This document shows positions 128-45,423 of a DNA stretch of 45,423 nucleotides, one piece after another. The translations under genes were made by a program, and so were the position numbers. The DNA is taken from IMG/VR virus record IMGVR_UViG_3300025292_000005, positions 1 through 45,423 of that record, one strand, 5' to 3'. The notes under the pieces are model-generated. The model had not been told where the DNA came from. It was given only the letters and a program-made list of their open reading frames with translations, and made no database searches. Every line of letters begins with the position of its first letter. Position 1 is the stretch's first letter. The DNA is from a virus.

Positions 128-1144
128 CACGACCGCTTCGATACTACGCATCTCCTGCTCTGCCTCGCGGACATCGACCGGCCTGGGGCGCGGCGAGGCG
201 GTTGCCGCTTCAGACGGCGAGAAGAAGTGACGACCGAAAATCCTCATGACGTGAGCAACCCCCTCGCTGGTAACCTCCCGAAGATCCTCCGCAAGATAGC
301 GATGACGGGAATGCTGGCCCGTGATGATCTCGTATGATGGGAAGTAAAAGGACTGAGCATCCGCGCGGGTGACATGCTCGGCAACGACCCGCAATGCGGA
401 CTTGCTGTAGGTCGTTGCGACAAGCACATGCTTCTTTTCGTAGGTCGCCACCAGAGGGACCGGTGAAACCGTGAAGATCATTCGAAGCGCCGGGTTAATC
501 GTGCGGACGTAGCGTGTGAAGATACGAAGATCCGCAATCATTTCCCCAACGTCGAAGTTGTGGTATTCGTAGTCGTCGAAACTTTCCGGGCTCCCGGCCA
601 CACCCGGGGCCAACGGAAAGACTGCGCCGTCCAGCTTCGAGCGCCAGCCTTCCGTCAGCCCCAATGTGAAGATAAATACGTCTGCCGTGTCGAACATGGC
701 TCTCACAGCGGCGAGATGGGTGTCTCTATCAGCATGGAGTGATTCGACTGTCGCAAACCCGTCCGGTTCCACCTGTGGACGGAATGGATCGACATATTTC
801 CCGTCTTGTCGGGTCCATACATCATCGATGGGCACGAAAAGACCGTAGGCCCTCTGGAAGAGCTGCACAAGTTGCCGCGGCGTGTAGATGTTACCGAAGC
901 GAGCAGGGAAAACCTGATAGTTCCGATCGGGGTCGCCGTCCTCCGTGACGAGGTAATGATAGCCGCTCGACGAGAGGTTCCGGGCGATGTGCTGCGCGAA
1001 GCAACTGCCAGCGGTCGCGATTCTATCCTGAGGCGAGAGCGTGAAAGGAACCGATACGACAGGATCGACGTCGTCAGGATGGATTGACGCTACCGACTTT
1101 CGCCAATTGGAATAGGGCGGCAAACCTTTATATGGATGGGTCAT
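101..1144 (-). CDS. GSCFA-family protein (SGNH/GDSL-like hydrolase or acyltransferase candidate)
   Basis: 347-aa ORF with the family-naming motif TAGSCFAQHI near the N-terminus. Its TGA stop (101-103) overlaps as ATGA the ATG at 104 (=45400) of the next gene across the circular junction. Confidence 0.8.
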   Translation of the reverse strand: MTHPYKGLPPYSNWRKSVASIHPDDVDPVVSVPFTLSPQDRIATAGSCFAQHIARNLSSSGYHYLVTEDGDPDRNYQVFPARFGNIYTPRQLVQLFQRAYGLFVPIDDVWTRQDGKYVDPFRPQVEPDGFATVESLHADRDTHLAAVRAMFDTADVFIFTLGLTEGWRSKLDGAVFPLAPGVAGSPESFDDYEYHNFDVGEMIADLRIFTRYVRTINPALRMIFTVSPVPLVATYEKKHVLVATTYSKSALRVVAEHVTRADAQSFYFPSYEIITGQHSRHRYLAEDLREVTSEGVAHVMRIFGRHFFSPSEAATASPRPRPVDVREAEQEMRSIEAVVCDEEALDA

Positions 1145-1204
1145 ATGTCACCGAAATATAAAACTGTCGGTGACATTAGACCGGGGCAATGGAAGACGGC
1201 AACC

Positions 1205-1477
1205 CTAGATTTCTCTTGTGGCTTCTTCCAGCACTGCTCGCGCCTGTTCTTCGGTGTCATCCATATCTTCGTGCAGCACGACAGTTTTCCCGTCGATGAT
1301 CCACTTTCGCTCCGCCTTCCGATAGGTTGCCGCGAACTTGTGGGTTCCGTGGTGCATGGAAGCCAAAGCAGCTTTGAAGGCTTCTTCCTGGGTATCGTCC
1401 ACGTCGGCCGGGAGCGTTACATCGTATGCTCCGATCTGCCAGCGCCGTTCATCGATTTTTTTGATATCCATCATCAT
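1205..1477 (-). CDS. Hypothetical protein (90 aa) downstream of the tailspike
   Basis: ATG preceded by AAGGA. Acidic protein on the same strand as the late operon. No recognisable motif. Confidence 0.55.
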   Translation of the reverse strand: MMMDIKKIDERRWQIGAYDVTLPADVDDTQEEAFKAALASMHHGTHKFAATYRKAERKWIIDGKTVVLHEDMDDTEEQARAVLEEATREI

Positions 1478-1489
1478 GGGCTCTATCCT

Positions 1490-3331
1490 TTAGCTAATGC
1501 ACGTGAAGGTGTATACGAACTGGCGCGATGCGCCGGATCGGTTCTCGATTTGGACAACGCCATTGTTGCAACTGATGGTAACTTGGCCATCAACCCCTGT
1601 TGTTCCGGTCAGCACGGAAGTAGAGAGAGCTATCGATGTCCCATTGGTGCCGGCCGCACGGCAAAGATGGGTTCCCGATGCTCGTATTTTCGCCCTTGCC
1701 CATAGCTGGTCCGCACTGGTCGTATCCATTTCAAACACGCCCTCGGTGAGCGAAGGCGGGGTAATGGAAGTAACTGCGTCATCTGCAACTGAGACGGCCC
1801 CTGATCTATACCCAGGCGCCACGACCTCACCCACGTTGGTGACGGTGAAAATGGGGGTCAGATCGGTATTGCTCCGATACCCGATAAACATTGCACCAGC
1901 GCCCCCGCCATGGGATTGGAAGCCGGCTGTTAAAGGCTTCAGCGGCTGTCCTGTGCCTGTCCTCAAGCTGTATCCAAAACTGACCGCACCGGTTTCACCA
2001 GAAATCCCGGAGCCGCCCGCCTGAAAACCTGCCGTGCAGCCATCAGATACATGCGACCGGACGCCGACAGCCTCAGTAACTGCGTTTCCATTGCTGTAGA
2101 TTGTGGCGAGAAGGCCGGTGAGAAGACCGGTAAACCCTGAAGCAGGAGCCGCTTCGGTGAACGCGTACATTGCGCGAAGGTTTCCCCCGCCGCCAAGCGC
2201 CGTTACCGATCCCTTATAAGCACGGATGTCGTGGTTAATGTTGGTCGTATCGGTCGTGAGATGGGCGCTGTACCCCCTGAACTCGGCTTCCGAGCCAACA
2301 ATCCCGTCTGGAAGATGGGCCTCAACATGATAGGCATATTGGCGAGTGCTGCCTGTTACCTGAGTGTTCCCGAAATCTGAGTATTCGTGAACCCTGGCAT
2401 TCCGGTTCGTTTGGATAGTGCTTTCCGCTAAGCTGAAGACCCCGTTTCTAAGAACCTGTCCTGGGAAAGACGTACCGTTGCCAAAGGTGGTGTCCGGCTC
2501 GACTCTCGTCCGGCAGTCGAAGGTCACAGCCTTATCACCGACCGTGAGCGAGCTTGCGACAAGTGCGGAGAAGTCGCCGGACGGAACACCGATCACCCCG
2601 CCCCCAACCGGAAGCGCGTCAATCGCCGCCTGAAACGCCGTCAGCAATGCTCCCGCAGATCCGCCCGAGACAGCCCCGTAATAGGTAACATCGACCGGGC
2701 GGGTAGCCATGGCAAGGTTGCTCTTGGCGGTCAGCTTGTTTGCGAGATCGGAGAGGTTTTGTGCCTTCTGCGCAGCACTATCAGCAAGGGCGAGCGAGGC
2801 TATTGAGGCTGCATTCAGCGCTACCGTGCGGTTTGCGGACAGGTCGCCGCCGCCGGTGAGACCCGTTCCCGCCGTCAACGTGCGAGAGGTCTGGACGGCA
2901 TTGACGATGCGGGTATCGTCGCCGGCCGCTACAGTACCGGCCGTGGTGCCAACATCAAGGGCGGCAGCGTCCCCAAGATCTCCTGGCTGAACGGCGCTGT
3001 CAGCGGTAGCCCCTTGCGCCGCCGTCGCGAATGCGGTGGCATCCTGCGCGGCAGCAGTGCCAAGCGTAGGAAGGTTGCCGAGATCGTTATAATCCCCGCT
3101 GATCCCCGCCGTAGAAACCTGCGCGGTGATCGCCTGCTTGGTGGTCAAAGGCGTCATAGCCTTGGACGGATTTGTCCCCGCCTCTGCTTCGGCTTGAGAG
3201 GCGAGCGGGCGGCCAGTATCCACGAGGGTCTGGATCGTGACCTTCTCGGTTGCCGCTCCGTCTACGGCGACGTTGAGGGTCGCGACCGGAGAGGCGGCCG
3301 TGGGTAATTGGTTAATGCGAATATCCGCCAA
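1490..3331 (-). CDS. Tailspike/tail fibre with pectate-lyase-like beta-helix (depolymerase candidate)
   Basis: The ORF track extends to a GTG at 3427. AGGAGA lies 6 nt upstream of an in-frame TTG at 3331, giving MADIRINQLPTA, a typical fibre N-terminus. The motif VDVTYYGAVSGG..AFQAAIDALP..GGVIGVPSGDF resembles the pectate_lyase_3 entry motif. Confidence 0.75.
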   Translation of the reverse strand: MADIRINQLPTAASPVATLNVAVDGAATEKVTIQTLVDTGRPLASQAEAEAGTNPSKAMTPLTTKQAITAQVSTAGISGDYNDLGNLPTLGTAAAQDATAFATAAQGATADSAVQPGDLGDAAALDVGTTAGTVAAGDDTRIVNAVQTSRTLTAGTGLTGGGDLSANRTVALNAASIASLALADSAAQKAQNLSDLANKLTAKSNLAMATRPVDVTYYGAVSGGSAGALLTAFQAAIDALPVGGGVIGVPSGDFSALVASSLTVGDKAVTFDCRTRVEPDTTFGNGTSFPGQVLRNGVFSLAESTIQTNRNARVHEYSDFGNTQVTGSTRQYAYHVEAHLPDGIVGSEAEFRGYSAHLTTDTTNINHDIRAYKGSVTALGGGGNLRAMYAFTEAAPASGFTGLLTGLLATIYSNGNAVTEAVGVRSHVSDGCTAGFQAGGSGISGETGAVSFGYSLRTGTGQPLKPLTAGFQSHGGGAGAMFIGYRSNTDLTPIFTVTNVGEVVAPGYRSGAVSVADDAVTSITPPSLTEGVFEMDTTSADQLWARAKIRASGTHLCRAAGTNGTSIALSTSVLTGTTGVDGQVTISCNNGVVQIENRSGASRQFVYTFTCIS

Positions 3332-3441
3332 AGTGGATCTCCTATTGATCTGAGAGCCACAACCAGCCAGAATCACGAACGCGCCGAAGGCTTGCAGGCC
3401 GACGACGCGCTCTAACCAAGCCAACACGGACGAGGTGTCAG

Positions 3442-4140
3442 ATGGCTATGAAATTCAAAGCATGTTGTGTTGAAGGTTGCAACAACTGCGCTTCACAAGA
3501 AAGAGGCGGAAGGCGTGGCCTTTGCTCGTCTCATTACTGGCGATGGAAAAGATCTAGACAAGGCTTGAAGAGATGTTCGGTAGGCGGCTGCTCAACTTCA
3601 TCGACGACCAAAGGGATGTGCTCAATGCACTACCACCGGTTTCGGACATTTGGCGATCCGATGAAAGGCCGAACCCCTAACGGAGCCCCTCAGCGATATT
3701 TCGATGAAGTCGTTCTGGTCTACGGCGGCGACGAGTGCTTGATGTGGCCTTACGCGAAGGACAATCAGGGATATGCAAGAATGTTCGACGGAAAACGAAT
3801 GAAAAGCGTCTCCAGAATGGCCTGCGAGAAAGCCAACGGAGAGGCCCCTGATGGGAAGCCTCACGCGGCGCATGCCTGTGGCAATGGGCATTTAGGGTGC
3901 GTTTCTAAGGTGCACATTCGGTGGGCGTCGGTATCCGACAACATGAACGACAAAGTGAAACATGGGACCAGTAACCGCGGAATACGCTGCGCATCTGCAA
4001 AGTTATCAGAACAAGACGTTAAGGACATACGATCGTCTAAAGGCATCCATTCCCAATACGTAATCGCGCATAAGTATGGGATAAACCAATCAACAGTCAG
4101 CGATATCATGACTGGAAAGCTCTGGGCTTGGCTTCCATGA
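3442..4140 (+). CDS. HNH homing endonuclease (free-standing, antisense to the tail genes)
   Basis: 232 aa, with GAGGTG RBS before the ATG. N-terminal repeated C..GC...C..HY.R zinc modules, then HACGNGHLGCV..H..W....DN (His-Me finger). C-terminal HTH-like tail. Confidence 0.8.
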   Translation: MAMKFKACCVEGCNNCASQERGGRRGLCSSHYWRWKRSRQGLKRCSVGGCSTSSTTKGMCSMHYHRFRTFGDPMKGRTPNGAPQRYFDEVVLVYGGDECLMWPYAKDNQGYARMFDGKRMKSVSRMACEKANGEAPDGKPHAAHACGNGHLGCVSKVHIRWASVSDNMNDKVKHGTSNRGIRCASAKLSEQDVKDIRSSKGIHSQYVIAHKYGINQSTVSDIMTGKLWAWLP

Positions 4141-4154
4141 AGGTTTATCGGCCA

Positions 4155-5237
4155 TTATTTCACCCTCATGTATGCCTTGACGGCGACGTTTTTCATGCGC
4201 GTTTCTGTGGAGGTTCGGGCCGAACGAGATAGGTCGAAATCGACGACGTAAGATGTAGCCGTGCCGCTACCGCCGCCTCGGCTCCAGCTGTCTTGAGCCG
4301 ACCCTGATCGGAATGGATCATCAGGCGTTCCAGATACCAAGGTTGATGCCGCATTAGCGGACGTGACATTCTGCATGGCATCGTTCTGGAGAGTGCCGGC
4401 AGTCGTGCCGGGGCGAAGAATGCGGCCTTCCGAGTTCAGCAACCGCACGGTCTGCCCGTTCATAGGAGATCCAGCAACTGAGATCACCGCCGACGCCAGG
4501 ACAAGAGGAGCCGTCCCGATGACGGATTCAGTCGTCAGCTTGCCGTTGTTGAATTGCCCTACTCCCGTAAGGCCAGCCGTCAGCTCGATATAGACGACGT
4601 CGGTTGCCGAGACGGGCGGGATATCCACGCCGGTTAGGGACGTATCGACCATGTAAACTTCGCCTATACCCTTGTAGGCCCATATGCCGCCCGTGATGTA
4701 GGCAACGAACGTGGTCGCGCTTGTGCGATAGATCTGAGCCTTTTGGCCCTTTGACAATGTGATGGTGGTGAGGCCGTTGATCGTTTCCGTGCCATTCGGG
4801 TCGATGATAACCGATCCACCATCTGCCCAAGCCTCGATATACCAAGTGCTGCGGAGGTCAGCCCCTGCGTCGATTGAGAGGGTTGCAGACGACCCGGTAA
4901 ACCGGAATGTCGTGTTGAAATCGGCATCGACGGCGGTATAGCTGGACGATCGGCTCGACAATTCTCCGCCAAGTTCGGAGACGGCCGCATCAAAGGTGGA
5001 TTTGTTGACCGCGTCCCCATCTGCTGTAGGGTTCCCGATATTGACGACGCGGAAGCCGTTCATGTTCAGCTGACCGCTCATCGGAGCTACGCCTGAGCGA
5101 AGGATCACCTGGCTCAGCATGCTCGCGATGTCTTCCAAGGGCGGATTGTGCTGGCTTGAAAGAATAGTTTGGCCGTCTACGGCAAGATATCCGGGGACGA
5201 GGGAGGCATTCCCGTTCGAATCAAATGGCATTGGCAT
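4155..5237 (-). CDS. Tail fibre protein with C-terminal tail-collar-like domain
   Basis: N-terminus VDGQTILSSQHNPPLEDIASMLSQVILRSGVAPMSGQLNMNGFRVVNIGNPTADGDAVNKS is typical of phage fibres. The C-terminus TETRMKNVAVKAYMRV resembles a collar domain. Confidence 0.75.
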   Translation of the reverse strand: MPMPFDSNGNASLVPGYLAVDGQTILSSQHNPPLEDIASMLSQVILRSGVAPMSGQLNMNGFRVVNIGNPTADGDAVNKSTFDAAVSELGGELSSRSSSYTAVDADFNTTFRFTGSSATLSIDAGADLRSTWYIEAWADGGSVIIDPNGTETINGLTTITLSKGQKAQIYRTSATTFVAYITGGIWAYKGIGEVYMVDTSLTGVDIPPVSATDVVYIELTAGLTGVGQFNNGKLTTESVIGTAPLVLASAVISVAGSPMNGQTVRLLNSEGRILRPGTTAGTLQNDAMQNVTSANAASTLVSGTPDDPFRSGSAQDSWSRGGGSGTATSYVVDFDLSRSARTSTETRMKNVAVKAYMRVK

Positions 5238-5246
5238 GTCCCCATG

Positions 5247-5272
5247 CGAAAAAGGCCCCGCGGTTGCGAGGC
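5247..5272 (-). terminator. Possible intrinsic terminator/attenuator upstream of the tail-fibre gene
   Basis: Minus strand reads GCCUCGC-AACC-GCGGGGC followed by CUUUUUC. It lies in a 200-bp lower-GC gap between genes. Confidence 0.35.
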
Positions 5273-5438
5273 TGGGTGAAGTCGGATATGTTCGGGAAGG
5301 CGGCTTACATTGAGGGACAGCTATTGAAGCTATTTCAGCTTGCCGTGTTTTTGGGGTTTCTCATATGCAATATCCATTTCCAGTGGGGAGCTACAGGTAT
5401 TGCAGCTCCTGTGGCTGGGGGGATGATTGCCTATTACG

Positions 5439-7034
5439 CTACCGGTCTGGTAATCGCTGTTGCTGACTTTGTCCGAGAAGGGCCTCGATCACTGCTGCGT
5501 ACTGCCCCGGGCTACCTAGACGCGTTTGCTCCAAAAGAGCGTTCGCGAGGTATCTCTGAACAGGAGAGGACATAAGGGCCCTCCCTGCCACCATCGGCAG
5601 CGCTGCCCCAGCCAATGCGCCTGCTACCCCAGCCATAGGCCCGCCGGCCGCCGTAGCGGCTATACCGCCACCAGCCCCGGTGATGCCGCCAAGGGTTCTT
5701 GCATTGAGCCTGGTTGCCGTTCCACTGTCTGGAAGCGGTCGCATGACAGCTTCCCCGGATCTGGCCAAGTCAGCAAAATCACCTTGCCCGCGAGCATAGG
5801 CACGGCGACCCTGCTGGACTACGGCGTTCCTGAGCGATGATGGGGAAATAAGGCCAGAGGCCGCGTTCTCGCCCGCTCCCGTAGCGGCCTTCTCCAGAAC
5901 AAGCATATTCCGATACTGTGTGCGGGCGCTCTGCCACGCGCCGAGATCGTTCGGGTTTGCCTGGGTAATGCTGCGTTCCATGGCATCGTCAAGAGCGTCC
6001 CGGATGCCTTGAAGGGCTTCCTTGCGATCTATGTCGTTGGTACCGCGGATCATCTTGGCAAGCCGCGAGGTGGTTCGCTGGAAAAAGTCACCCGCGATCG
6101 GGCCTGTCGTAGCCTTCGCAGTGAGGTCGCTGACCAAGTCTTCCACGATTGGAGACCGAGCACTTTCGGGCGTCACGCTCACATACTGACGGTAGGTATT
6201 CCCGAGGTCTTGACCGAATTGTGGATCAGGGATGATCTGGTTTCGAGAAGCAAGATTATCGAAATCCTTACCGATGCGCGTAAAGGCATCGTCGATGACC
6301 TCTGGCGTTGCTCTTTCGGCATCGATCCCTGCGCGACGGAGTGCGGCGGCGGTGAATTGTTCGCCTTGACGCTCCATTACGTTCGCCGCGCTCCCGCCCC
6401 CAAGCTCGCTTTCCATGGCCCGAAGGTTCCGGCTTCCGGTAATCTGCCCTGCTGTCGGCTGCACCCCCTCAGAACGCAGTATTTCTGACGCCGCCTGACG
6501 TTCGGGAGAGACACCTATAGGAGTAATAGCCCTTCGAACAACGGATGGGGTAATGAGCGCGGCCGCAATGCGAGCATATGGCTCGACAACACTTCCCTCC
6601 GTAAGTTGCCCAGCTGCCTCGCTCGTCAACGCTGGCGCGACACCGTTCACAAGCAGATTGGACGGGTTAACGCCTCCAAAGAGTGCCGCGCCAGGAAGAA
6701 ACTCACCGACCGTGGAAGCGTACTCACCTGTGGTCGTGGTTGGTTTATAGTCCGTCGCACCCCCGGATACAGCAGAAAGGCCGGCTCGGGCATTTTGGGA
6801 ATTAAACGGATTTTGAGGTGGAGCTTTCATACCCGTTACGTAGCTTACGCCCTGATCAAACAGGTTATTGAGCGTCCCAGGTAGTCCGATCAGGTCCGCC
6901 GCACCACGGGCAACGCCAGATGCCAAGGATGCCCCCGCATCTTTGATGGTCTCGCCCCATCCTCCGCCCTGCTCCATTTCCCGGCGACGACGGGCCTGCG
7001 CTATGGCGATAGCCTTTTGCTGCTCTAGGTTCAC
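5439..7034 (-). CDS. Internal virion/ejection protein (531 aa)
   Basis: Occupies the position after the nozzle and other internal proteins. The C-terminus is a Gly/Ala-rich hydrophobic tract (GITGAGGGIAATAAGGPMAGVAGALAGAALPMVAG), consistent with membrane insertion. Confidence 0.55.
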   Translation of the reverse strand: MNLEQQKAIAIAQARRRREMEQGGGWGETIKDAGASLASGVARGAADLIGLPGTLNNLFDQGVSYVTGMKAPPQNPFNSQNARAGLSAVSGGATDYKPTTTTGEYASTVGEFLPGAALFGGVNPSNLLVNGVAPALTSEAAGQLTEGSVVEPYARIAAALITPSVVRRAITPIGVSPERQAASEILRSEGVQPTAGQITGSRNLRAMESELGGGSAANVMERQGEQFTAAALRRAGIDAERATPEVIDDAFTRIGKDFDNLASRNQIIPDPQFGQDLGNTYRQYVSVTPESARSPIVEDLVSDLTAKATTGPIAGDFFQRTTSRLAKMIRGTNDIDRKEALQGIRDALDDAMERSITQANPNDLGAWQSARTQYRNMLVLEKAATGAGENAASGLISPSSLRNAVVQQGRRAYARGQGDFADLARSGEAVMRPLPDSGTATRLNARTLGGITGAGGGIAATAAGGPMAGVAGALAGAALPMVAGRALMSSPVQRYLANALLEQTRLGSPGQYAAVIEALLGQSQQQRLPDR

Positions 7035-9055
7035 TGGAAAAGCCTCCGCTGCTCAGGCGTCATATATTTCCAGTCCTCTGGGTCAACGCCCTGCGGCACG
7101 TCTTCGGGACCAGACTTAAGCTGACGGGTCTGCTCGAATATGGCATCACCAACCTTAGGACCATGGATAACGCGAAGGAGGGTCTTTTCGTAATTGTCGA
7201 GAGCCTTCTCAACTTGCTCGCGCCCTGCATTCGGATCGATAGCTCCAGCGGCGGCCGCAAGCATCGCGCCTTCCTTCTCTGTCACGCTTCCAAGTGCGCC
7301 GCCGGTCGGGCTGGCCTGACGCATGGCGGTCAGGTTCTCGATTGTGGCGTTGGAGGTCAGGACGCCGATCTGACGACGAAGCTCAGCAGCATCGCTTTCC
7401 GTGAGGTTTGCGGCCATGCGGCCCAGAGTGCCGGTCGTCATAGTCCCGTTCTTGAGCAGATTTCTGGCCTCGGAAGCGGCATTCGTGATAACATCGGTAG
7501 CAGTTTCCTTCCGGCCACCTTGCGTTTCTCTCGCCTTGAGTGCCTGCTCCATTTCAAGAGCTGCGGGAGAGCCTGGAATGGGCTGGATCGAGGTAATTCT
7601 CCCTTGATCGTCACGGAGAGCCTGATAACCGGCTGGAATGCTCCCTTCATTATTAATGGTGATCCCTTTATCGCCACCCGAAAGCATGAATTTCTGATAA
7701 TCGGGCGTCCCCGGCTGAAGACCGGCCTGCTCCGCTCTCAGCTGAAGGGATCGAACACTATCTGGGACCTTCGCGTTAGGATTTTGAAGAGCATCAATCT
7801 CCAATTGGCTTTTCCGCAGTCCAAGCTGATAGGCAGGATCAGCTTGCTTGAGCTGCATTTCCTGCTGTGCCTGCTGCTGGGCAATCTGCTGTTGCAAGAG
7901 CGCCTTGGCGACAGCCTGGGTCTGCGGGCTCGCACGAGGATCGGTCAAAGCGCGGATAATCGCCGGGTTGATGCCCGGAGCCTGCCTCTGGGGCTGCGGT
8001 CCAGTGAGGGCCTGGGCTACCTGCTGCGGTGGAACCGCTGCGACGGCTGGCGGTGAGGCGATGGTCGTCGGCGCAGGAAGCGCGGGGGCATCCGGTTGGG
8101 CGCTCACCATGGGATCGACATAGCCGGATGCCGGCGCAGCAGCCTCAATTGCTGCCGCAGCGGGGGGCATGCTGGAGGAGGATAAAGCTGCCATAGCAGC
8201 CTGAGGAGAGGCCGAGGCAACTTGTGTCGGTTGGCCGCCGATAGCGGACAACACTAGCGACTCTGGGTATAGGCGCCCCTTCTGGCCGTGTTCTTGCAGA
8301 ATGAGAGCTTGCATGAATTTAGCGGCGCGCTGAGGGTCATTGAAGCCAATGTCCTCATCCGGCCGGATGCCCATGGTGCGCGCTACGTTCGCTGCAGCCT
8401 GGAAATTGCCAGGGGTCCAGCCCATATCTCCGGCGATCATCTGGTTGGGCGTCAGTTTGCCGCCAGCGTATTTCTTACCGAGAAGCGAATACATCGCCCT
8501 CATGCCGGACTCGGGCGTGTCAAAGACCGCCTGTGGGTCTCCCTGGTCGGTGTTTACCGATGGGCCGACGATGCCGGGAACCCTTTGGCCTACATACTTG
8601 ATATTGCCGGGATTGTTGTTCCGCATACCCGCCGGGAGCGTGGCACGGCGCGCATCGTCCGATAGATATGCGCCAAGTTCTGTCCCATCGTTGGCAAAAA
8701 CCGGCGTGTTGGCCGCGACCACCGCTGGGCTGGTCGCGGCCATCTCATTGCCGGCGCCCGTCGTGGTCGGCATTGCTGCGGCCGCCGGCACAGACGTTGC
8801 GGCCCCGCCAAGCAGGGTATTAATGATGCTGTCGTTATAGGCGCTGTTATCCTTCTCAGCGCCGGTGGCAACACGGTCGTCGATTGCGCCCATGACGCCC
8901 TGCGCCACACGCGCCAGGCCCTGCGACCAATGCCCGACCGGGGAGAAGTCCATACCCTGCCTCATCAGGGCGGCGGCAATCTTCCGCTGCGCCTCGATCT
9001 GGTCGGGGGTGAGCTTGGTTCCGCCCTGCCCCCACAGGAAAGGTTCTGCAGCCAT
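7031..9055 (-). CDS. Large internal virion/ejection protein (674 aa) with conserved NNNPGNI motif
   Basis: ATGA-type overlap with both neighbours. Ala/Pro-rich linkers, the motif MRNNNPGNIKY and a C-terminal coiled region. A cell-wall-acting role is only inferred. Confidence 0.55.
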   Translation of the reverse strand: MAAEPFLWGQGGTKLTPDQIEAQRKIAAALMRQGMDFSPVGHWSQGLARVAQGVMGAIDDRVATGAEKDNSAYNDSIINTLLGGAATSVPAAAAMPTTTGAGNEMAATSPAVVAANTPVFANDGTELGAYLSDDARRATLPAGMRNNNPGNIKYVGQRVPGIVGPSVNTDQGDPQAVFDTPESGMRAMYSLLGKKYAGGKLTPNQMIAGDMGWTPGNFQAAANVARTMGIRPDEDIGFNDPQRAAKFMQALILQEHGQKGRLYPESLVLSAIGGQPTQVASASPQAAMAALSSSSMPPAAAAIEAAAPASGYVDPMVSAQPDAPALPAPTTIASPPAVAAVPPQQVAQALTGPQPQRQAPGINPAIIRALTDPRASPQTQAVAKALLQQQIAQQQAQQEMQLKQADPAYQLGLRKSQLEIDALQNPNAKVPDSVRSLQLRAEQAGLQPGTPDYQKFMLSGGDKGITINNEGSIPAGYQALRDDQGRITSIQPIPGSPAALEMEQALKARETQGGRKETATDVITNAASEARNLLKNGTMTTGTLGRMAANLTESDAAELRRQIGVLTSNATIENLTAMRQASPTGGALGSVTEKEGAMLAAAAGAIDPNAGREQVEKALDNYEKTLLRVIHGPKVGDAIFEQTRQLKSGPEDVPQGVDPEDWKYMTPEQRRLFQ

Positions 9056-9981
9056 TATGCGGCCTCCGTCGCGATGCGATAGTCAACCATCTTGAACCCG
9101 TTCGGCTGCTCGAATACCGCTTCCGGTGCCATCTGCTCGACTTCATCCGCCATGAGGCCGATCTCTGTGACGTTGGATCCGCGCATCTTGTAGGCATAGA
9201 CGGGCAAGCCGTTATCCAGACGGCCGACGCGGCGAATGTCCGTCTTGAGGCGGCGATCGGAATACTTGATGCCTGCGGTGAGCCCCGTTCCGAGGAGGCC
9301 GAACAGTCCGCCCATCTGTGCTTGAGAGTTCGCAAGCTTTGCCTGATACTGCTGGTTCACAAGCCCAGTATAATCGACGCCACCAACCCCCGTCTGCGGC
9401 GTCTGGTTCATCTGAGGCATGGAGACTTGAGACCCCGACATGAGAGCGGAGATCTCGTTGATCGGCTGGTTTCGCTGCTGCAAAGCTTCGGTGAAGGCTT
9501 GCTGGCGGCCATTGAGCATTAACTGGTTGTAGGCATCGTTCTTTGTCTGCCCAAAGCTATCCATTTGCTGCCGGTAAGCTTCAGTGCCGGGGCGGATGCC
9601 GGACGAAATTAGCTGGGTGCGCAGTTTTTCCTGATCAGCGGCAAATCTAGGATCAAGGCGCTGAGCGCCAAGGTCATATGCCCAGTTCTCTGCATCCTGG
9701 TTGTTGTATTCGAACGGGGTGTTGAGCAGATCCCTAATTTTCCCCGACTGCTCGTTCGCGATCGAGCCTAGGTTAAGGCTCGCCTTGTCTGTCTGTTCCT
9801 TGATCGCCTGCTGTTGCGGAGAAAGCGTCGTGGTCTGGGTATAGGTCGGCGTCTCTACCCATTTGCCAGTACTGTCCTGGAAACGGCTCGTTCCTGTCTG
9901 GTCGTATTTTATGGTGCCATCGGGGCCGACTTGATTTACAGCGTTTAGCTGCATCTGCGTGATGGCCGTATCTCTGTTCAT
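9055..9981 (-). CDS. Virion protein with C-terminal peptidase S74 intramolecular-chaperone domain
   Basis: The C-terminus YSDRRLKTDIRRVGRLDNGLPVYAYKMRG...IGLMADEVEQMAPEAVF....GFKMVDY matches the S74 autoproteolytic chaperone pattern. The N-terminus is Gln-rich. Confidence 0.65.
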   Translation of the reverse strand: MNRDTAITQMQLNAVNQVGPDGTIKYDQTGTSRFQDSTGKWVETPTYTQTTTLSPQQQAIKEQTDKASLNLGSIANEQSGKIRDLLNTPFEYNNQDAENWAYDLGAQRLDPRFAADQEKLRTQLISSGIRPGTEAYRQQMDSFGQTKNDAYNQLMLNGRQQAFTEALQQRNQPINEISALMSGSQVSMPQMNQTPQTGVGGVDYTGLVNQQYQAKLANSQAQMGGLFGLLGTGLTAGIKYSDRRLKTDIRRVGRLDNGLPVYAYKMRGSNVTEIGLMADEVEQMAPEAVFEQPNGFKMVDYRIATEAA

Positions 9982-10101
9982 GCCGGCTTGGGCTTGCGCA
10001 GTAGCTACGGGGTCAGGAGCTTTGGGGCTAGAAACCAGTTTACTATCCTCCCATTCTCTGATACGCTAAGCAAATCAATGCAACAGCGTGGGGAAGTTGA
10101 A

Positions 10102-10743
10102 ATGGAAATAAGCCGTGCCGACGAAGGACGTTTCTGGCTTAAGGTTGATCGTAAATCACCAGACGAATGCTGGCTTTGGTTGGACAAATCAAAACATTGG
10201 AAAGGCTACGGTCTATTTACAATCGCAACCGGAAAACCGGGTGGACGGAAGCTTGTTGCATCCAGAGTCGCCTGCTTTCTCCAACATGGGGCACCCACAT
10301 TCGAAAAAGCGAAGGCTCTGCATTCCTGTGATAATCCGCCCTGCTGCAACCCTGCTCACTTGAGATGGGGGACGCAGCGGGATAACGTTGCCGACGCAAA
10401 AGAGAGAAAGCGACACGTCAACCCACCGGACACTCACTCTCACCCCGAGTGGAATTCAAAGCGTCTCGCCGCGATGCCCAAAGGAGAAAAGCTCCACAAT
10501 CAATCTCTTACGGAACACCAGGCGCGCGAAATATTCCGGCTTCACATGAGCCACCACAACGTTACTCAGATTTCTGAACAACTCGGGATCAAAAAACATG
10601 TTGTGGCCGACGTTTGCCGGGGTCGATCATGGCAGCATCTTCCAGATGCACCCTCGACTGATGAACTGAAGAAGGGCGGCGTTCGTCGCGGCTTCAATCA
10701 GTTTTCCCAAAGCGGTAATCCTCTTTCAGAATGCCGACGATAA
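10102..10743 (+). CDS. HNH homing endonuclease (second copy type, antisense to the structural genes)
   Basis: HSCDNPPCCNPAHLRWGTQRDNVADA is an HNH_3-type motif, with a C-terminal HTH (NVTQISEQLGIKKHVVADV). Start chosen at the ATG after GGGGAAG. The ORF track starts at 9988 and another ATG lies at 10078. Confidence 0.8.
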   Translation: MEISRADEGRFWLKVDRKSPDECWLWLDKSKHWKGYGLFTIATGKPGGRKLVASRVACFLQHGAPTFEKAKALHSCDNPPCCNPAHLRWGTQRDNVADAKERKRHVNPPDTHSHPEWNSKRLAAMPKGEKLHNQSLTEHQAREIFRLHMSHHNVTQISEQLGIKKHVVADVCRGRSWQHLPDAPSTDELKKGGVRRGFNQFSQSGNPLSECRR

Positions 10744-11083
10744 AGGCGTCTCTCGACGGACCAAAATGGTTGCGCAGCAGGCCCTCGACCCGCCCGCCAA
10801 GACGCTCCGCCAAGCCAACGACGTGCGCCTGTTCGGTCAGAGCCGTCATTCGTTCGCATCGCAGCTGTTCAAACACGTAATGCCCGACCTCCCGACAGAA
10901 TGACCGTGTCCATCCATGTCCAGCGATCGACACATGGACATCAGCCCCTTCGAACACATTGAAGAGTGCTCCGGCGATGATCTCGCCGTTTTTCTCAATC
11001 CCCATGACTGTGAACGGCGGGACGAATGCCTTTCCAACAGCGCTTGAGACAAACTGCGCGACCCTATCGTCAGAGACGATCAC
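10694..11083 (-). CDS. Small GNAT-like acetyltransferase-fold protein (129 aa)
   Basis: The pattern GIEKNGEIIAGALFNVFEGADVHVSIAG...R....YVFEQLRCERMTA......N.....LAERLGGRVEGLLRNHFG resembles phage GNAT-family proteins. ATGA-type overlap with the nozzle gene. Confidence 0.45.
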   Translation of the reverse strand: MIVSDDRVAQFVSSAVGKAFVPPFTVMGIEKNGEIIAGALFNVFEGADVHVSIAGHGWTRSFCREVGHYVFEQLRCERMTALTEQAHVVGLAERLGGRVEGLLRNHFGPSRDAFIVGILKEDYRFGKTD

Positions 11084-33578: not shown

Positions 33579-34012
33579 TGTCTGCCGAATTGACGCACAT
33601 TGCCTGCCCCTGCACGACGTTCGAACAGGACGAGGATTGCCCTGTCGGTATGCCGTCCCTGCTTTGCAGCGTCTGCGACGGGAAGGGCGTTGCCACGATT
33701 GATGACGTCGTCGCCCTTGCGGCCGAGATGCTGAAGGTCGCTGAACAGGTTGGCGAACTGGAAGATCCATTCGCGGCATGGGAGAGCATCGAACTCCTCA
33801 AGTCTGGTTCTCTTGTGGGCAGAACAGAAAATCAGCCGCGCTGTGGCGTTATTGGCTGGCCGCCGCTTAAGAAGGCTCTTTGGGATGCGGTGATAGCGAC
33901 AAATGTCAATTCCCCTCACTACATCAGTGCTTGGGATTTGACTGACCGTCTTTATGCGGCCGCTCTTTCCGCCACCTCCCCCACCCTTCCGGTAGGAGGA
34001 AGCGATGAGTAG
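33578..34012 (+). CDS. Protein with N-terminal CxC...CPVG.PSLLC..CDGKG zinc-finger-like motif
   Basis: IACPCTTFEQDEDCPVGMPSLLCSVCDGKGV (DnaJ-type CxxCxGxG-like). GAGGAGG RBS. A GTG at 33575 is also possible. Confidence 0.5.
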   Translation: MSAELTHIACPCTTFEQDEDCPVGMPSLLCSVCDGKGVATIDDVVALAAEMLKVAEQVGELEDPFAAWESIELLKSGSLVGRTENQPRCGVIGWPPLKKALWDAVIATNVNSPHYISAWDLTDRLYAAALSATSPTLPVGGSDE

Positions 34013-38879: not shown

Positions 38880-39574
38880 CCGTCACACCAGACCAAGCCA
38901 TAGCGCAGATCCGGGAGGCTTTAGAAAAGGTCGAAGTTTGCGAGTGGTTCGTGGACCCGAAGCCAACCAACAGTGGCCTTACCCGCGTCGATGACGGCAA
39001 GTCATCCGGCATCTTCCCCATTCGCGGGGAGACTTTCGAGATGGAATACGTCGCCGCCTGCAATCCTCAGAACATGAGTGTCCTCCTAGCAGAAATCGAC
39101 GCCCTTCAACATGACATAGAACGCCATGTCGATATCGCCGCCGCCCTCGCATCCCAAGCACAGAGCGGGGAGACGGTGGAGACACCAGCGCCCTCATCAC
39201 TTTTGGTGGGGTCGGCGGAGCCAGATGGCTGGATCTGCGAAGATGAGTTCACGCTTGAAGCCGATCAGCGCGATGAGTGGGTCGAGGAAGGCCTTGAACC
39301 GAAGCCTTTCTATTTCGCACCCCCGGCACCTCAGACACAAATGCAGTGGACGCATGTGAAGCGGTCACCGGAGGCCGCCGGCGCGAACTTGTATAAGCTC
39401 CGGGGAGCGCCAATCCCATCACCCGCACCGAGGGAGGTGGTGGCTTGCGACTGCACGAAAGTCGCTCAGGATGAAACCTGCCCTGTCGGCTATCCTTCTC
39501 TGCTTTGCGATGAATGCGACGGGAAGGGCGTAGTTCCGGCCCCCTCCACCCCCAACAGCGGGGAGACGAGATGA
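38876..39574 (+). CDS. Protein with C-terminal CDC...CPVGYPSLLCDECDGKG zinc-finger-like motif (paralogous motif to 33578..34012)
   Basis: The motif was read from the translation. The matching DNA segment 39479-39531 is about three-quarters identical to 33638-33690. Confidence 0.5.
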   Translation: MTVTPDQAIAQIREALEKVEVCEWFVDPKPTNSGLTRVDDGKSSGIFPIRGETFEMEYVAACNPQNMSVLLAEIDALQHDIERHVDIAAALASQAQSGETVETPAPSSLLVGSAEPDGWICEDEFTLEADQRDEWVEEGLEPKPFYFAPPAPQTQMQWTHVKRSPEAAGANLYKLRGAPIPSPAPREVVACDCTKVAQDETCPVGYPSLLCDECDGKGVVPAPSTPNSGETR

Positions 39575-39948
39575 CGACGCCTCTTGACGAAGCGATATCG
39601 CCAGCCGGGGCCGTTGCCAAGCTTCAGGCGGTCGGCATATCAATATCGGAGCGGACGCTGCGAGAACGAGCCCGCTCCCTTGGAGCCTGCCGGGTTATAG
39701 GCAAGGCGATGTTTCTGATGCCATCTGATCTAGACACAATCATAACCGCCGCAAAGCCGGAGCCCATTTCATGCCAGACGTCTACAAAAGGAAAGGCAGC
39801 GACGTCTGGCAGTTTGAGTTCACTGTGGACGGAGTCCGATACAGACGATCTTCTAAGACGAGTGACCGCCGCCTCGCCGAGGACATCGCGATCAAGGCAG
39901 AAGACAGGGTCCGTCGTGCCGCTGTCCACGGCGCGGAAGCGGTCCTAA
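39571..39948 (+). CDS. Excisionase-like HTH protein (ORF overlaps int by 178 nt)
   Basis: VAKLQAVGISISERTLRERARSLGACRVIGKAMFLMPSDLDTII is HTH-like. ATGA coupling upstream, positioned directly before int. Confidence 0.4.
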   Translation: MTTPLDEAISPAGAVAKLQAVGISISERTLRERARSLGACRVIGKAMFLMPSDLDTIITAAKPEPISCQTSTKGKAATSGSLSSLWTESDTDDLLRRVTAASPRTSRSRQKTGSVVPLSTARKRS

Positions 39949-40736
39949 CCTTCCCCGAAGCCGTTGCTGAATATGTGAACGATGGCAAGAGCGGACGCTT
40001 CACAGCCCCGCTCATCCGGCATTTCCGAAAATGGAAGATGAAGGACATCACCGGCCCCGAAATCCGCAAGGCCGCTAAGATCATATATCCCGACGCTTCG
40101 CCATCGACATGGAACCGACAGGTCATAACCCCGATGCGGGCGATCATCAATCACGTCGCAGAGGCCAAGCGGCTCCCGAAGATATCGGTGACGCGCTTCA
40201 AGGAAGAGACCAAGCGCCGGCCGGCCGGGAATACCGACTGGCTCAAGGCTTTCTCCAAGACGGCTCGGAAGCTCAACATGCCGGAGACCGCGGCACTCGC
40301 CCGGTTCCTGTTCGAGACCGCCACCCGCGTTTCTGAGGCCTGCCGCCTTACGTGGGACGACGTAGACCTGCAGCTCGGCGTGGCATATCTGGAAAAGACA
40401 AAGACGGTTCCGAGGAAGGTTTTCCTGACCCGGGCCATGGTCATCGACCTAGCTAACATCCGAAGCCTTCACCCGACCAGGGTATTCGTCGCCGCCAACC
40501 GATCGACGGTAAAGAAGCGCATTGACAAGGTGATCAAGGAAGCTGGTCTCGTGCGCCTCACAAGCCATGAGCTAGGGCGCCATGGCTTCGCTACGGAGAT
40601 GATCGTGAGGAACGGCGTGGACATTGCCACGACGGCAGATCACGGCGGCTGGAAGTCGCGCAGACTGCTGATGGAGACCTATGTGGAGGGGGATGCGGAT
40701 CGGGAAGTTATCGACCGCGTTTTTGGCAAGAAATGA
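39771..40736 (+). CDS. int: Tyrosine recombinase integrase
   Basis: N-terminus MPDVYKRKGSDVWQFEFTVDGVRYRRSSKT. Catalytic region TATRVSEACRL, SHELGRHGFAT and LLMETYV (R..HxxR..Y). Confidence 0.9.
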   Translation: MPDVYKRKGSDVWQFEFTVDGVRYRRSSKTSDRRLAEDIAIKAEDRVRRAAVHGAEAVLTFPEAVAEYVNDGKSGRFTAPLIRHFRKWKMKDITGPEIRKAAKIIYPDASPSTWNRQVITPMRAIINHVAEAKRLPKISVTRFKEETKRRPAGNTDWLKAFSKTARKLNMPETAALARFLFETATRVSEACRLTWDDVDLQLGVAYLEKTKTVPRKVFLTRAMVIDLANIRSLHPTRVFVAANRSTVKKRIDKVIKEAGLVRLTSHELGRHGFATEMIVRNGVDIATTADHGGWKSRRLLMETYVEGDADREVIDRVFGKK

Positions 40737-40841
40737 CCTCGATGGCACAGCCAAGTCACAGTCACAGTTCCGAAACAAAATTCTTGACAAGAAAAGTGAA
40801 TGGAATCAATTCGGTAGCTGTGGTACAAGAGAATAAGTTAA

Positions 40842-40885
40842 CTCCCTTAGCAGGGGAGCGCCTTCGACCACTCGGCCACCTCTCC
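40842..40885 (-). other. attP core candidate: 5-prime half of tRNA-Ser(GCU) (acceptor 5-prime strand, D-arm, anticodon stem-loop), not a complete tRNA
   Basis: Minus strand reads GGAGAGGTGGCCGAGTGGTCGAAGGCGCTCCCCTGCTAAGGGAG. Similarity stops right after the anticodon stem, with no variable arm, T-arm or 3-prime acceptor following. Confidence 0.7.
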
Positions 40886-43341: not shown

Positions 43342-43513
43342 TGATCGCGTTCCTTTCGCGAAGGACTGTGACGGAGGTCTGGAGAGCGGCAGTTGCCGCA
43401 GCTTGCCGAGCTTCCGATTGGCCGATCCATTTAGCCGGATAGAAGGCAATAGCCGCGCCAAGGACGATTGCTGCCGGGAGCTTGATCACGTCGGGGATAA
43501 GGGAGAGGATCAT
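43169..43513 (-). CDS. i-spanin
   Basis: N-terminal TM (LPAAIVLGAAIAFYPA) with a periplasmic helical domain. ATGA overlap with the endolysin stop. Confidence 0.7.
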   Translation of the reverse strand: MILSLIPDVIKLPAAIVLGAAIAFYPAKWIGQSEARQAAATAALQTSVTVLRERNAINDQVTASDAGALCAALGLSDDETTECMRRMAETTGEPADGGSDTQDRSPVCRAGSKP

Positions 43514-43977
43514 GCTCCCTCCAGGCAGTATTCACGCTCTTTCTGACGGCGCTTGGTGAGCCCCGGAAATCGAATGCCGGCGGCCTTATCCCACTTGAGC
43601 AGCGCGTCACAACCGGCTTTGGTCTCGCCCACGTTGATGAGCTTCACGACACTCGAACCGCAAGCCCCCTTGACACCGACGTTATAGGCGAAGGAAATAA
43701 GCGCTACGTATCGCTTGTCCGGCAGAGGAACCGTGACGCAGCGATCGATGCCCGCAGCGTATTCCTGTAAGGAATCCTCCAGCATCGCCTTGCACTGAGC
43801 GATCGTGTAGTGATCCCCGGGCTGAACGCCTTTGGTCTCGCCGTAGCAGACGGTCCAAGGCGGTCCTTTCGTCGCCGGATCGGGATACGCGTTCTGGCGG
43901 AGGCCTTCAAAGCCACCAACAAGGGTAGCGGCGAGCGCGGCGACGGCCCCGCCCTTCTTCAAGCGACTACTTGGCAT
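43510..43977 (-). CDS. SAR-type endolysin (GH24 / T4-lysozyme family)
   Basis: N-terminal weakly hydrophobic Ala/Gly-rich segment GGAVAALAATLVGG, followed by FEGLRQNAYPDPATKGPPWTVCYGET (Glu-x8-Asp...Thr). Confidence 0.85.
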   Translation of the reverse strand: MPSSRLKKGGAVAALAATLVGGFEGLRQNAYPDPATKGPPWTVCYGETKGVQPGDHYTIAQCKAMLEDSLQEYAAGIDRCVTVPLPDKRYVALISFAYNVGVKGACGSSVVKLINVGETKAGCDALLKWDKAAGIRFPGLTKRRQKEREYCLEGA

Positions 43978-44167
43978 CGAGATTTCCTTGAGCGATGATT
44001 CTGGCTAGGGGAGAGATCATGAGAAAGACGATCGACAGCCAATTCGGTATCCAGGCGTCGAGATATGGGACGATGTACGGAGCCAGTTCCAACAGACCGG
44101 CCAGATAGACGCACCACATGGACAAAGAGCGCGCGAGGACGCGCCCCGGTCGGCTGATGATGTTCAT
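43967..44167 (-). CDS. Holin/pinholin candidate (66 aa, two TM)
   Basis: Two hydrophobic helices, positioned directly upstream of and overlapping the endolysin gene. GGAGAAAAGC RBS. Confidence 0.55.
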   Translation of the reverse strand: MNIISRPGRVLARSLSMWCVYLAGLLELAPYIVPYLDAWIPNWLSIVFLMISPLARIIAQGNLDAK

Positions 44168-44240
44168 GCTTTTCTCCAGGCAGCCGAAAGGCTCCGCGCG
44201 AAGTTGCGGTCCATGGGGGTTCCTTTTTTTTGGGGGGAAT

Positions 44241-44264
44241 GAAAAAGGCCCGCCGAAGCGAGCC
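44241..44264 (-). terminator. Intrinsic terminator ending the late/accessory operon
   Basis: Minus strand reads GGCUCGC-UUCG-GCGGGCC followed by UUUUUC. The G-U pair forms only in the minus-strand RNA. Confidence 0.65.
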
Positions 44265-44329
44265 TTTCTATTGTTCTCTATGTGGTGACTTAGCGACCGG
44301 TGAAGCCGATCGTCGGCAAGCCATTCCGC

Positions 44330-44527
44330 TTAATCATAAACCGGGACCATTTTTCTGACCTCTGCCTTAGAGATCTGCCGTCCGTTGGGTACGTTCGCTG
44401 CGACCCATTCATTGAAGCAGTGAGGGCACATAACCTCTTCATTTTCCTTGAGCGGAGAGGCATCTGCCACGAACTCGTGACCCTTCTCACACCTGAACGT
44501 CGCGACATATGGAACTTGATAGCTCAT
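44330..44527 (-). CDS. Small zinc-ribbon-like protein (65 aa)
   Basis: FRCEKGHEF......VMCPHCFNEW. AAGAGGTAAGG RBS. Confidence 0.55.
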   Translation of the reverse strand: MSYQVPYVATFRCEKGHEFVADASPLKENEEVMCPHCFNEWVAANVPNGRQISKAEVRKMVPVYD

Positions 44528-44542
44528 CCCTTACCTCTTTAG

Positions 44543-45400
44543 CTAGGCGGCTTTTGGTTTGATCAATTCGCGCTGGATGAATTCGCGGGCTTTATCGACC
44601 CGGATCGCTTCGTATCCATCCGACAGAATTCCGTAGCTGTCATAGGATTGCGCCACAAATTCCTGAAGATCGATGATCTCTCCGGCCCTTATCTGGAAAT
44701 CGAAGTTTCCAGCAATGTCATTCGAGATGCCGGGATAGACGGGCCATACGACGCCCTCGCCTAGCTCGTCGGGCGGGCAACCCGCATCACTATGAGTGGG
44801 AACGCCAGCCATATTAAGGGCCTGTTTCGCTACTTCGAAAAGTAGCTCAACCCAGGGGTGATTGATAGTATGCATGAATACCCCCCGAGAAAGAGCTTCG
44901 GAGTGATCGTGCCCGGCCTCGGCCATATGCTTTTTCAGGATCGGCAGCGTTGCGTCATATACACCTCGCAGGCCGAGAGACGCATACGTGAATCTGTTGA
45001 ACAAGGCGCATGCCCGCTGCTGACTTAGCCCCTCAAGATAAGCCGCCGCGACGATCGACGAGTGATAAGAGAACAAGGCCCCGTTTATATAGACCCCGTT
45101 GCACTTGATGTAGCAAAGATCGGGATGAAAACCGGCGAATCCGAATGATGGGAATGCCACCGCCCTGTAGCCGGAGGCGCGAAGCCTCTCGATAGAAAAG
45201 GGGCCAGCATGGTCGTCTGGCTTCTGGATCAGCAGAATGTCCGACCGGCTGACCTGTGAAGCCAGATTGGCCTTGCCCGCGTCGTCGGCCTGCATGATCG
45301 TTCTGATGTCAAGCGGCCGGACGTCCGAACTCTTGGTCAGGCTTTCGACGCTCTTTGCAACCCCGCGCGCCTGGCAGTTCCCAATTACCCAGATGGTCAT
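44543..45400 (-). CDS. WcbI-like polysaccharide-modification protein (putative acetyltransferase-like)
   Basis: N-terminal MTIWVIGNCQARGVA (GNCQ motif) and a size of about 285 aa resemble the WcbI family. Its start is ATGA-coupled to the GSCFA gene across the junction. Confidence 0.5.
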   Translation of the reverse strand: MTIWVIGNCQARGVAKSVESLTKSSDVRPLDIRTIMQADDAGKANLASQVSRSDILLIQKPDDHAGPFSIERLRASGYRAVAFPSFGFAGFHPDLCYIKCNGVYINGALFSYHSSIVAAAYLEGLSQQRACALFNRFTYASLGLRGVYDATLPILKKHMAEAGHDHSEALSRGVFMHTINHPWVELLFEVAKQALNMAGVPTHSDAGCPPDELGEGVVWPVYPGISNDIAGNFDFQIRAGEIIDLQEFVAQSYDSYGILSDGYEAIRVDKAREFIQRELIKPKAA

Positions 45401-45423
45401 GCGTCAAGCGCCTCTTCATCGCA
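45297..45423. repeat. Terminal direct repeat copy 2 (identical to 1..127)
   Basis: Letter-for-letter identity. Confidence 0.9.

Follow-up and report, generated by a model that had tools for sequence, protein, structure and literature searches.

WcbI, a protein encoded in the CPS-I cluster of Burkholderia pseudomallei, is needed for capsule and virulence in that organism and is inactive alone. In the only structural study of this protein, it bound coenzyme A (CoA) and acetyl-CoA tightly, had no acceptor site and showed no activity by itself, and the authors proposed that it acts with an unidentified partner protein (PMC4104973). Our literature search found no later paper that names this partner. 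GSCFA is one of five SGNH families without a known activity and was listed in a 2022 review among those lacking a known function or structure; SGNH families include many carbohydrate O-acetyltransferases and esterases (PMC9487903). Here we describe a 45,423-nucleotide stretch of viral DNA (IMG/VR record IMGVR_UViG_3300025292_000005, positions 1 to 45,423, referred to as the window) in which a GSCFA gene overlaps a gene of the WcbI family. These two families, neither of which has a demonstrated activity, are now linked by repeated fusion, by gene overlap, and by co-divergence, and the linkage bears on the open biochemical question of the WcbI partner.

A division of labor between a donor component and an SGNH protein that delivers the acyl group is found in PatA/PatB, AlgI/AlgJ/AlgX, OatA, and the OafA/OafB AT3-SGNH fusions, in both fused and split versions (PMC9487903). 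We propose a similar logic for the window pair. In the described systems the donor is an integral-membrane MBOAT or AT3 protein and the action is periplasmic or extracellular, whereas both parts of the window pair are predicted to be soluble and the donor side is taken by a protein of the unrelated WcbI fold. Because of its soluble parts and WcbI-fold donor side, the module is not a member of the MBOAT/AT3-SGNH families; there is no match to the AT3 Pfam family (Acyl_transf_3, the Oac/OafA type) and no transmembrane segment.

Receptor-modifying acetyltransferases of prophages are a known moron concept and include Sf6 Oac, an AT3 membrane protein, and CUS-3 NeuO, a cytoplasmic hexapeptide-repeat O-acetyltransferase of the K1 capsule that is encoded near the tailspike gene. 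In the Oac and NeuO prophages the acyl-modifying gene lies near a receptor-binding gene or an att end and an altered surface glycan is expected, as we propose for the window pair. NeuO is cytoplasmic and acetyl-CoA dependent, which the pair may be by analogy, although the enzyme families are unrelated. A further comparison is offered by Rhizobium phage RHph_Y1_10 (L119), whose lysozyme gene shares 71.5% nucleotide identity with that of the window and in which a Hexapep acyltransferase is encoded upstream of the lysis cassette. This slot is analogous, but the families are different, WcbI and GSCFA are absent, and the genes are uncoupled. The hexapeptide-repeat acyltransferase lies at 7168-7725 of that locus, and a protein annotated as an "SGNH hydrolase-type protein," which has no Pfam match, is encoded downstream at 4048-5406.

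The overlapping GSCFA and WcbI genes

The second gene of the pair (44543-45400, minus strand) encodes a 285-amino-acid (aa) protein, predicted to be soluble, that begins with MTIWVIGNCQ. It matches PF18588 with an E value of 7.1e-29 (101.4 bits against a cutoff of 29.2; profile positions 2-204 of 205). A search of the PDB with the single sequence returned nothing relevant, and a profile search was required: a profile of 16 WcbI homologs (alignment A1) matched 4bqn/4bqo, the B. pseudomallei protein, with an E value of 7.6e-10. The AlphaFold model (predicted local distance difference test [pLDDT] of 94, predicted template modeling [pTM] score of 0.89) matches the WcbI fold, which consists of an N-terminal four-stranded parallel-sheet lobe and a helical C-terminal lobe: Foldseek placed 4bqn_A/4bqo_A on top (E = 7.7e-11; template modeling [TM] score of 0.67/0.63), and the match that came next scored worse by a factor of about 10^8. 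All 16 homologs share Cys9 of the GNCQ motif, which aligns with Cys14 of 4bqn. In the WcbI crystal, Cys14 lies in the ligand crevice at the C-terminal end of strand beta-1 and carries a CoA adduct (PMC4104973). The 285-aa protein is thus a true member of the WcbI family, and the resemblance to WcbI that the first-pass annotation had read from the sequence is upheld by Pfam, by profile, and by fold. The window protein and B. pseudomallei WcbI share the Pfam family, the fold, the cysteine, a soluble character, and an association with glycan synthesis, but their identity in the structural alignment is only 16%. The window protein is also phage borne and coupled to GSCFA, with which its relatives are elsewhere fused, whereas the Burkholderia protein has no reported partner of this kind.

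The first gene of the pair (101-1144, minus strand) encodes a 347-aa protein of the SGNH clan, also predicted to be soluble, that matches the GSCFA family over the full length of the profile (PF08885; E = 1.8e-51, positions 1-237 of 237). The best PDB matches of its AlphaFold model (pLDDT of 83.7) are SGNH esterases, namely, the CE3 enzyme 2vpt, 4h08, GDSL esterases, and the peptidoglycan O-acetylesterase Ape1; the probability of the CE3, GDSL, and Ape1 matches is 0.99 to 1.0, but their TMq is only about 0.35, and from the model the fold can be called SGNH-like. Among 39 GSCFA homologs, S47 (in the GSCFAQH motif), N85, G162, and H239 are invariant, as is the motif G46-S47-C48-F49-A50-Q51, and E236 is conserved in at least 90%, which gives an ExxH arrangement resembling SGNH block V. 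The window protein has the traits of its family (full-length match, GSCFAQH motif, SGNH-like fold, and conserved Ser, Asn, Gly, and His), and the family acquires here a defined partner and is set in glycan and phage contexts. The maximum 19-residue hydropathy is 0.99 for the WcbI protein and 1.30 for the GSCFA protein, with no transmembrane-like segment in either, and both should therefore be cytoplasmic. The C terminus of GSCFA, ...CDEEALD (residues 340-347; window 101-124), is invariant or nearly so in the 39 homologs and is preceded by a low-confidence, probably disordered linker (residues 312-339). This terminal peptide may have a docking or active-site-capping role, or its overlap with the downstream start may keep it from changing.

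Positions 1-127 of the window are an exact repeat of 45297-45423, which makes the contig a circle of 45,296 bp, and the GSCFA gene therefore runs across the junction into the next gene. The two genes overlap by ATGA in ...GCGCTTGACGCATGACCATC..., with the GSCFA stop codon TGA (45399-45397) lying over the WcbI ATG (45400-45398). The 127-nucleotide terminal repeat and the reading of GCGCTTGACGCATGACCATC confirm the overlap across the circular junction that the first-pass annotation had described. The interval given there for the cassette, 44241-45400, was correct as far as it went and left out the GSCFA half of the unit (101-1144).

Linkage of the two families and extent of the module

The identical 4-nucleotide overlap is present in L008, L010, L011, L013, and L014, and in all of the nearest WcbI relatives (P0002-P0005) GSCFA lies directly upstream with the same overlap. 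Linkage was assessed more broadly by scanning 80 loci with close GSCFA homologs, drawn from GTDB species representatives, with the WcbI hidden Markov model (HMM). WcbI was present in 41 of these loci, as an in-frame WcbI-GSCFA fusion in 23 and as an adjacent gene in 18; GSCFA preceded WcbI, as in the window, in 15 of the adjacent pairs and followed it in 3. Pfam scans of long WcbI-family representatives, whose proteins had been predicted independently, found WcbI and GSCFA fused in both orders, proteins with two to three WcbI domains together with GSCFA and DUF4214, and one protein (P0278) in which WcbI is joined to a CE4 polysaccharide deacetylase. For 51 linked pairs, the pairwise WcbI identities are correlated with the pairwise GSCFA identities (r = 0.55, a value reached by 0/2000 permutations in a Mantel test), a correlation to which shared phylogeny contributes, and the mean identity is 28% for WcbI versus 52% for GSCFA, indicating that WcbI is evolving much faster. 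Proteins that are repeatedly fused, translationally coupled, and co-divergent are classically taken to share a function, and the functional unit is the pair of GSCFA and WcbI, not three genes. This widespread, obligate-looking, and often fused pair had been missed by the first-pass annotation. GSCFA is a concrete candidate for the proposed partner of WcbI, at least in this branch of the WcbI family.

Other arrangements were seen as well. WcbI domains are fused to the CE4 domain in P0278 and to long TPR arrays in P0242. In Falsiroseomonas ponticola (L011), positions 5382-10888 hold two tandem GSCFA-WcbI pairs and a third, divergent GSCFA gene, near a polysaccharide pyruvyl transferase. Several GSCFA loci have a protein of about 250 aa next to GSCFA (alignment A5; L024 5198-5989, L027 5248-5994, L081 5258-5998, and 12 more) that has no Pfam match and carries SGNH-like blocks (GxSH, GGNxHN, and DATHAN); it may be an alternative partner of GSCFA. 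We considered whether WcbI is distantly homologous to GSCFA or to the A5 protein, and hhalign did not support this (probability of about 5%). The WcbI and GSCFA models have a weak fold match to 4h08 in common, which we note as a lead only.

The first-pass annotation had counted a third gene in the cassette, a zinc-ribbon gene with a strong ribosome-binding site whose product would be a small metal-binding partner. A 65-aa open reading frame (ORF; 44330-44527, minus strand) does start 15 nucleotides past the WcbI stop codon, behind the Shine-Dalgarno sequence in AAGAGGTAAGGG-ATG, and shares the transcription unit. Its GC content at the three codon positions (GC1/GC2/GC3 = 0.56/0.36/0.58) is coding-like, and together with the Shine-Dalgarno sequence this suggests that it may be a real gene. 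A three-component cassette, with the zinc-ribbon protein as the metal-binding partner of both enzymes, would fit this close spacing, the good Shine-Dalgarno sequence, and the terminator in common, but it is largely refuted by the comparative data, and we give it hardly any credence. The zinc-ribbon assignment is weak, with sub-threshold scores for Zn_ribbon_8 (18.0 bits against a cutoff of 34.4) and Zn_ribbon_Brz (18.3 against 27.9), and the ligands are arranged as C13-x3-H17...C34-x2-C37 and not as the two CxxC knuckles of a zinc ribbon. Among 5.8 billion protein clusters the protein matched only itself; the ORF occurs only in copies of this phage (L001-L007) and in none of the other 111 of the 118 GSCFA/WcbI loci examined, bacterial or viral. 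The nucleotide homology with L008/L009, at 78% identity, extends to the WcbI stop codon and no further. Judged from these sequence comparisons, the 65-aa ORF is a phage-specific orphan outside the conserved module, and its role as a metal-binding partner is not sustained.

The boundaries of the inherited unit differ among relatives, so that the description of the cassette as self-contained does not hold. Window positions 2176-1 are 79% identical in nucleotide sequence to L008, and the C-terminal ~230 codons of the tail fiber gene (1490-2176) are co-inherited with the module. The co-traveling unit in L008 consists of the tail fiber C terminus, a 90-aa ORF, GSCFA, and WcbI; that in L010 consists of GSCFA and WcbI alone. 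The 90-aa ORF upstream of GSCFA has a frameshifted homolog in L008 and a degenerate remnant in L010, and the GSCFA-WcbI pair is intact in both while its surroundings decay. L008 was considered as an independent bacterial polysaccharide-cluster context, and this was rejected when blastn showed that the tail fiber C terminus and the 90-aa ORF are shared with the window and are followed by transposase debris; for these same reasons L008 is taken to be a related phage fragment. By our reading of the sequence, the apparent degraded transposase fragments occupy 10860-11800 of L008, right after the WcbI stop codon.

Such mosaicism could mean that the pair is passenger DNA, acquired along with a tail fiber fragment by recombination and without a selected function in the phage. 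The genome is indeed mosaic, with only the lysozyme in common among relatives, and decay around the pair in L008 (the frameshifted 90-aa ORF and the transposase debris) points the same way. Against this, neither ORF is disrupted and each keeps every family-invariant residue, the sequence is identical across at least 7 assemblies, unrelated phage backbones have acquired the pair repeatedly at a similar position, and the pair has remained intact in L008 and L010 despite the decaying surroundings. We therefore regard passenger DNA as a slim prospect.

The pair adjoins tail fiber or tail genes in the window and in at least 7 phage-like contigs, comprising L013/L014, an unrelated prophage with a Mu-like baseplate, and the IMG/VR contigs L097, L101, L103, L105, and L106. 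In L100 it lies between an endolysin and an integrase. In L097, L103, and L106 the pair faces the tail genes in convergent orientation, which points to its transcription independently of them. L013 has GC-rich hairpins on both sides of the pair (7556-7600 and 9855-9897), both with a TTCTGCGTTCGGGGG tail, and 270 nucleotides of noncoding DNA upstream of it, an arrangement that points to an independent transcription unit; the twin hairpins look like a duplicated terminator marking an insertion. A tblastn search of 50,697 GenBank phage genomes with GSCFA and WcbI gave no match, and PHROGs has no family for GSCFA, WcbI, or the 65-aa ORF. No compositional anomaly was found in the module, the GC and GC3 content of which resemble those of the rest of the phage.

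A proposed role in modification of host surface glycans

The window phage is temperate, occurs as a prophage, and integrates into tRNA-Ser(GCU). An identical WcbI protein was found on at least 10 contigs, several of which are about 45 kb long like the window. Three of these assemblies, L002 (from an 85.9-kb contig), L006, and L007, match the window at 100% identity down to position 40841, where they part from it, and ARAGORN placed a tRNA-Ser(GCU) gene across the host junction in all three (L002 14516-14606, L006 4532-4622, and L007 4539-4629); other assemblies show the circular form. These junctions define an attP core, part of the tRNA gene, at 40841-40885 (no strand assigned), and a tyrosine integrase is encoded at 39771-40736. 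Measured from the junction at 40841, the GSCFA-WcbI module therefore lies 3.4 to 4.6 kb from one end of the prophage.

On the minus strand the gene order is tail fiber, 90-aa ORF, GSCFA, WcbI, 65-aa ORF, hairpin, and lysis cassette. The hairpin (44238-44267, minus strand), located between the module and the holin gene, resembles an intrinsic terminator, with a 10- to 12-bp stem, a UUCG loop, and a U-rich tail; it reads AAAGGCUCGC-UUCG-GCGGGCCUUU (44267-44244) and is followed by UUCAUU. The centroid hairpin has a free energy of -18.2 kcal/mol, and the 76-nucleotide stretch around it has a z score of -2.2 (5/200 shuffles as stable). A simple scanner missed this terminator because the U-run partly pairs with an upstream A-run. 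The UUCG-loop terminator of the first-pass annotation is thus present at 44267-44244 with the -18.2 kcal/mol hairpin, and the position of the genes directly after the tail fiber in a temperate phage, ending at a terminator, was also borne out. Carriage by a temperate prophage and a terminator of its own at 44238-44267 agree with what is expected of a moron.

In the 41 bacterial loci where the genes are linked, 150 proteins flank the pair, and the families that recur most among them are group-1 glycosyltransferases, GDP-mannose dehydratase/epimerase/RmlD-like enzymes, and S-adenosylmethionine-dependent methyltransferases; further neighbors include polysaccharide pyruvyl transferase (PS_pyruv_trans), UDP-glucose dehydrogenase, and OpgC. 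The module is most plausibly read as having a role in surface glycan modification or exclusion. On balance, we favor the hypothesis that GSCFA and WcbI act in the cytoplasm on the acyl (acetyl) decoration of a host surface polysaccharide and serve as a lysogenic-conversion module. WcbI would be the CoA- or acyl-CoA-binding component, with its invariant cysteine, and GSCFA would be the SGNH-type serine acyltransferase or esterase component. The pair most likely O-acylates, and probably O-acetylates, a host surface polysaccharide or its cytoplasmic precursor, with a deacylating (editing) role also conceivable. The module would thereby alter the glycan recognized by the neighboring tail fiber and so change the sensitivity of the lysogen to related phages. 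The hairpin terminator would stop transcription of the module before the holin and lysozyme genes, and such sparing of the lysis genes is understandable if the lysogen expresses the module. The comparisons show the families and folds of the two proteins, the coupling of their genes, the frequencies of fusion and adjacency, the temperate nature of the phage, and the recurring location beside tail fibers; we infer the reaction, its substrate, lysogenic expression, and the effect on exclusion.

A more specific version of this hypothesis is that the two proteins form a soluble two-component glycan O-acyltransferase of a class not recognized before, which also exists as a fusion, that GSCFA is the missing partner of WcbI, and that the whole is spread by phages as a receptor-masking (superinfection-exclusion) module. 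In such an enzyme, acetyl-CoA would load the WcbI cysteine, from which the GSCFA serine would receive the acyl group for transfer to the sugar. We put this version forward tentatively and consider it doubtful in its full form. The concept of a receptor-modifying moron is a known one, and the GSCFA and WcbI pair is new in that proposed role. The module is a candidate for a receptor-modifying system of a new enzyme type. Uncultured temperate phages of Alphaproteobacteria and of further groups carry it repeatedly beside tail fiber genes.

Several observations weigh against cytoplasmic glycan acylation by the pair in the lysogen. Most proteins of the WcbI family, which comprised 3,170 cluster representatives in an exhaustive HMMER search, stand alone. 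In the 80-locus census, 39 GSCFA loci were without WcbI, and 17 of these 39 had the different, ~250-aa SGNH-like protein directly upstream of GSCFA, which indicates that GSCFA does not strictly need WcbI. To our knowledge, GSCFA is missing from the wcb cluster of B. pseudomallei. The enrichment of glycan genes around the pair is moderate and not exclusive. Among 17 IMG/VR contigs with a related lysozyme, which are mosaic and without synteny, the module was absent and no syntenic empty site was found. Finally, the module lies on the late-gene strand, with gaps of only 12 and 60 nucleotides after the tail fiber, and could for this reason be expressed only late.

The net reaction could also be deacylation, as SGNH proteins and CE4 partners are typically hydrolases. 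The pair would then edit the glycan: GSCFA would strip a host glycan or precursor of O-acyl groups by hydrolysis, WcbI would be a CoA-sensing regulatory or substrate-presenting subunit, and conversion would occur by removal of a decoration. The closest folds to GSCFA are carbohydrate esterases, WcbI is also fused to a CE4 polysaccharide deacetylase, and WcbI by itself has no acetyltransferase activity (PMC4104973). However, WcbI binds acetyl-CoA tightly and is encoded in a cluster for an O-acetylated capsule that has no other candidate acetyltransferase (PMC4104973), several SGNH families are bona fide O-acetyltransferases (PMC9487903), and an invariant cysteine at the CoA site suits an acyl relay better than regulation. 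We consider deacylation unlikely, and acylation remains the direction that we favor.

Signals upstream of GSCFA bear on when the module is expressed. The 60-nucleotide gap contains a candidate promoter, TTGCCG-N18-TAATGT (1173-1202, minus strand), and the boxes TTGCC[G/A]-N18-TAATGT are kept in the window, L008, and L010, with a spacer that has diverged in L010. Two points count against it: a sigma-70 scan upstream of GSCFA called no promoter, the candidate being a poor match to the consensus, and its conservation rests on effectively two independent sequences. The same region holds a strong hairpin, AUGUCACCGA...UCGGUGACAU (1145-1176, minus strand), that ends 1 nucleotide before the GSCFA start codon and would cover any GSCFA ribosome-binding site (minimum free energy of -25.8 kcal/mol, z = -3.3, 0/200 shuffles as stable). 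The hairpin is kept in L008 and not clearly in L010, and it may be a translational or operator element.

With no convincing promoter found upstream of GSCFA, the module might be expressed late, either to modify the tail fiber or virion or to condition host envelope glycans for release or against readsorption to debris. The module is on the same strand as and directly downstream of tail fiber genes in the window, L013/L014, L101, and L105, and in L008 it is inherited together with the tail fiber C terminus and the 90-aa ORF. Such a function is nevertheless difficult to reconcile with the convergent orientation of module and tail genes in L097, L103, and L106, with the terminator-like hairpin and the 270 nucleotides of noncoding DNA that separate the L013 module from upstream genes, with the many bacterial chromosomes in which the pair occurs without surrounding phage genes, and with the terminator between the module and the lysis genes. 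We regard a late function as improbable and continue to favor conversion of the lysogen.

Neighboring genes and other features of the phage

The tail fiber gene that precedes the module (1490-3427, minus strand) encodes 645 aa and has PHROG matches to minor tail, tailspike, and virion structural proteins. Between it and GSCFA is the 90-aa ORF (1205-1477, minus strand), which has weak matches only (DUF2188 and phrog_18346) and may be a tail fiber accessory protein or chaperone. Past the terminator, the lysis cassette consists of a holin-like gene (43967-44167), a lysozyme gene (43510-43977), and genes for a 114-aa protein and an Rz-like protein. An Rfam scan of the window gave no match, and PADLOC defense-system models matched none of GSCFA, WcbI, the 65-aa ORF, or the 90-aa ORF.

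Two early-region genes share a Cys-rich CxxC peptide motif, encoded by an 89-nucleotide direct repeat of 73% identity at 33602-33690 and 39443-39531. Within the tail gene block, a 232-aa Cys/His-rich gene (3442-4140, plus strand) lies on the opposite strand and possibly encodes an HNH-type endonuclease; homologs of this gene are located near lysis genes in L120 and L124.

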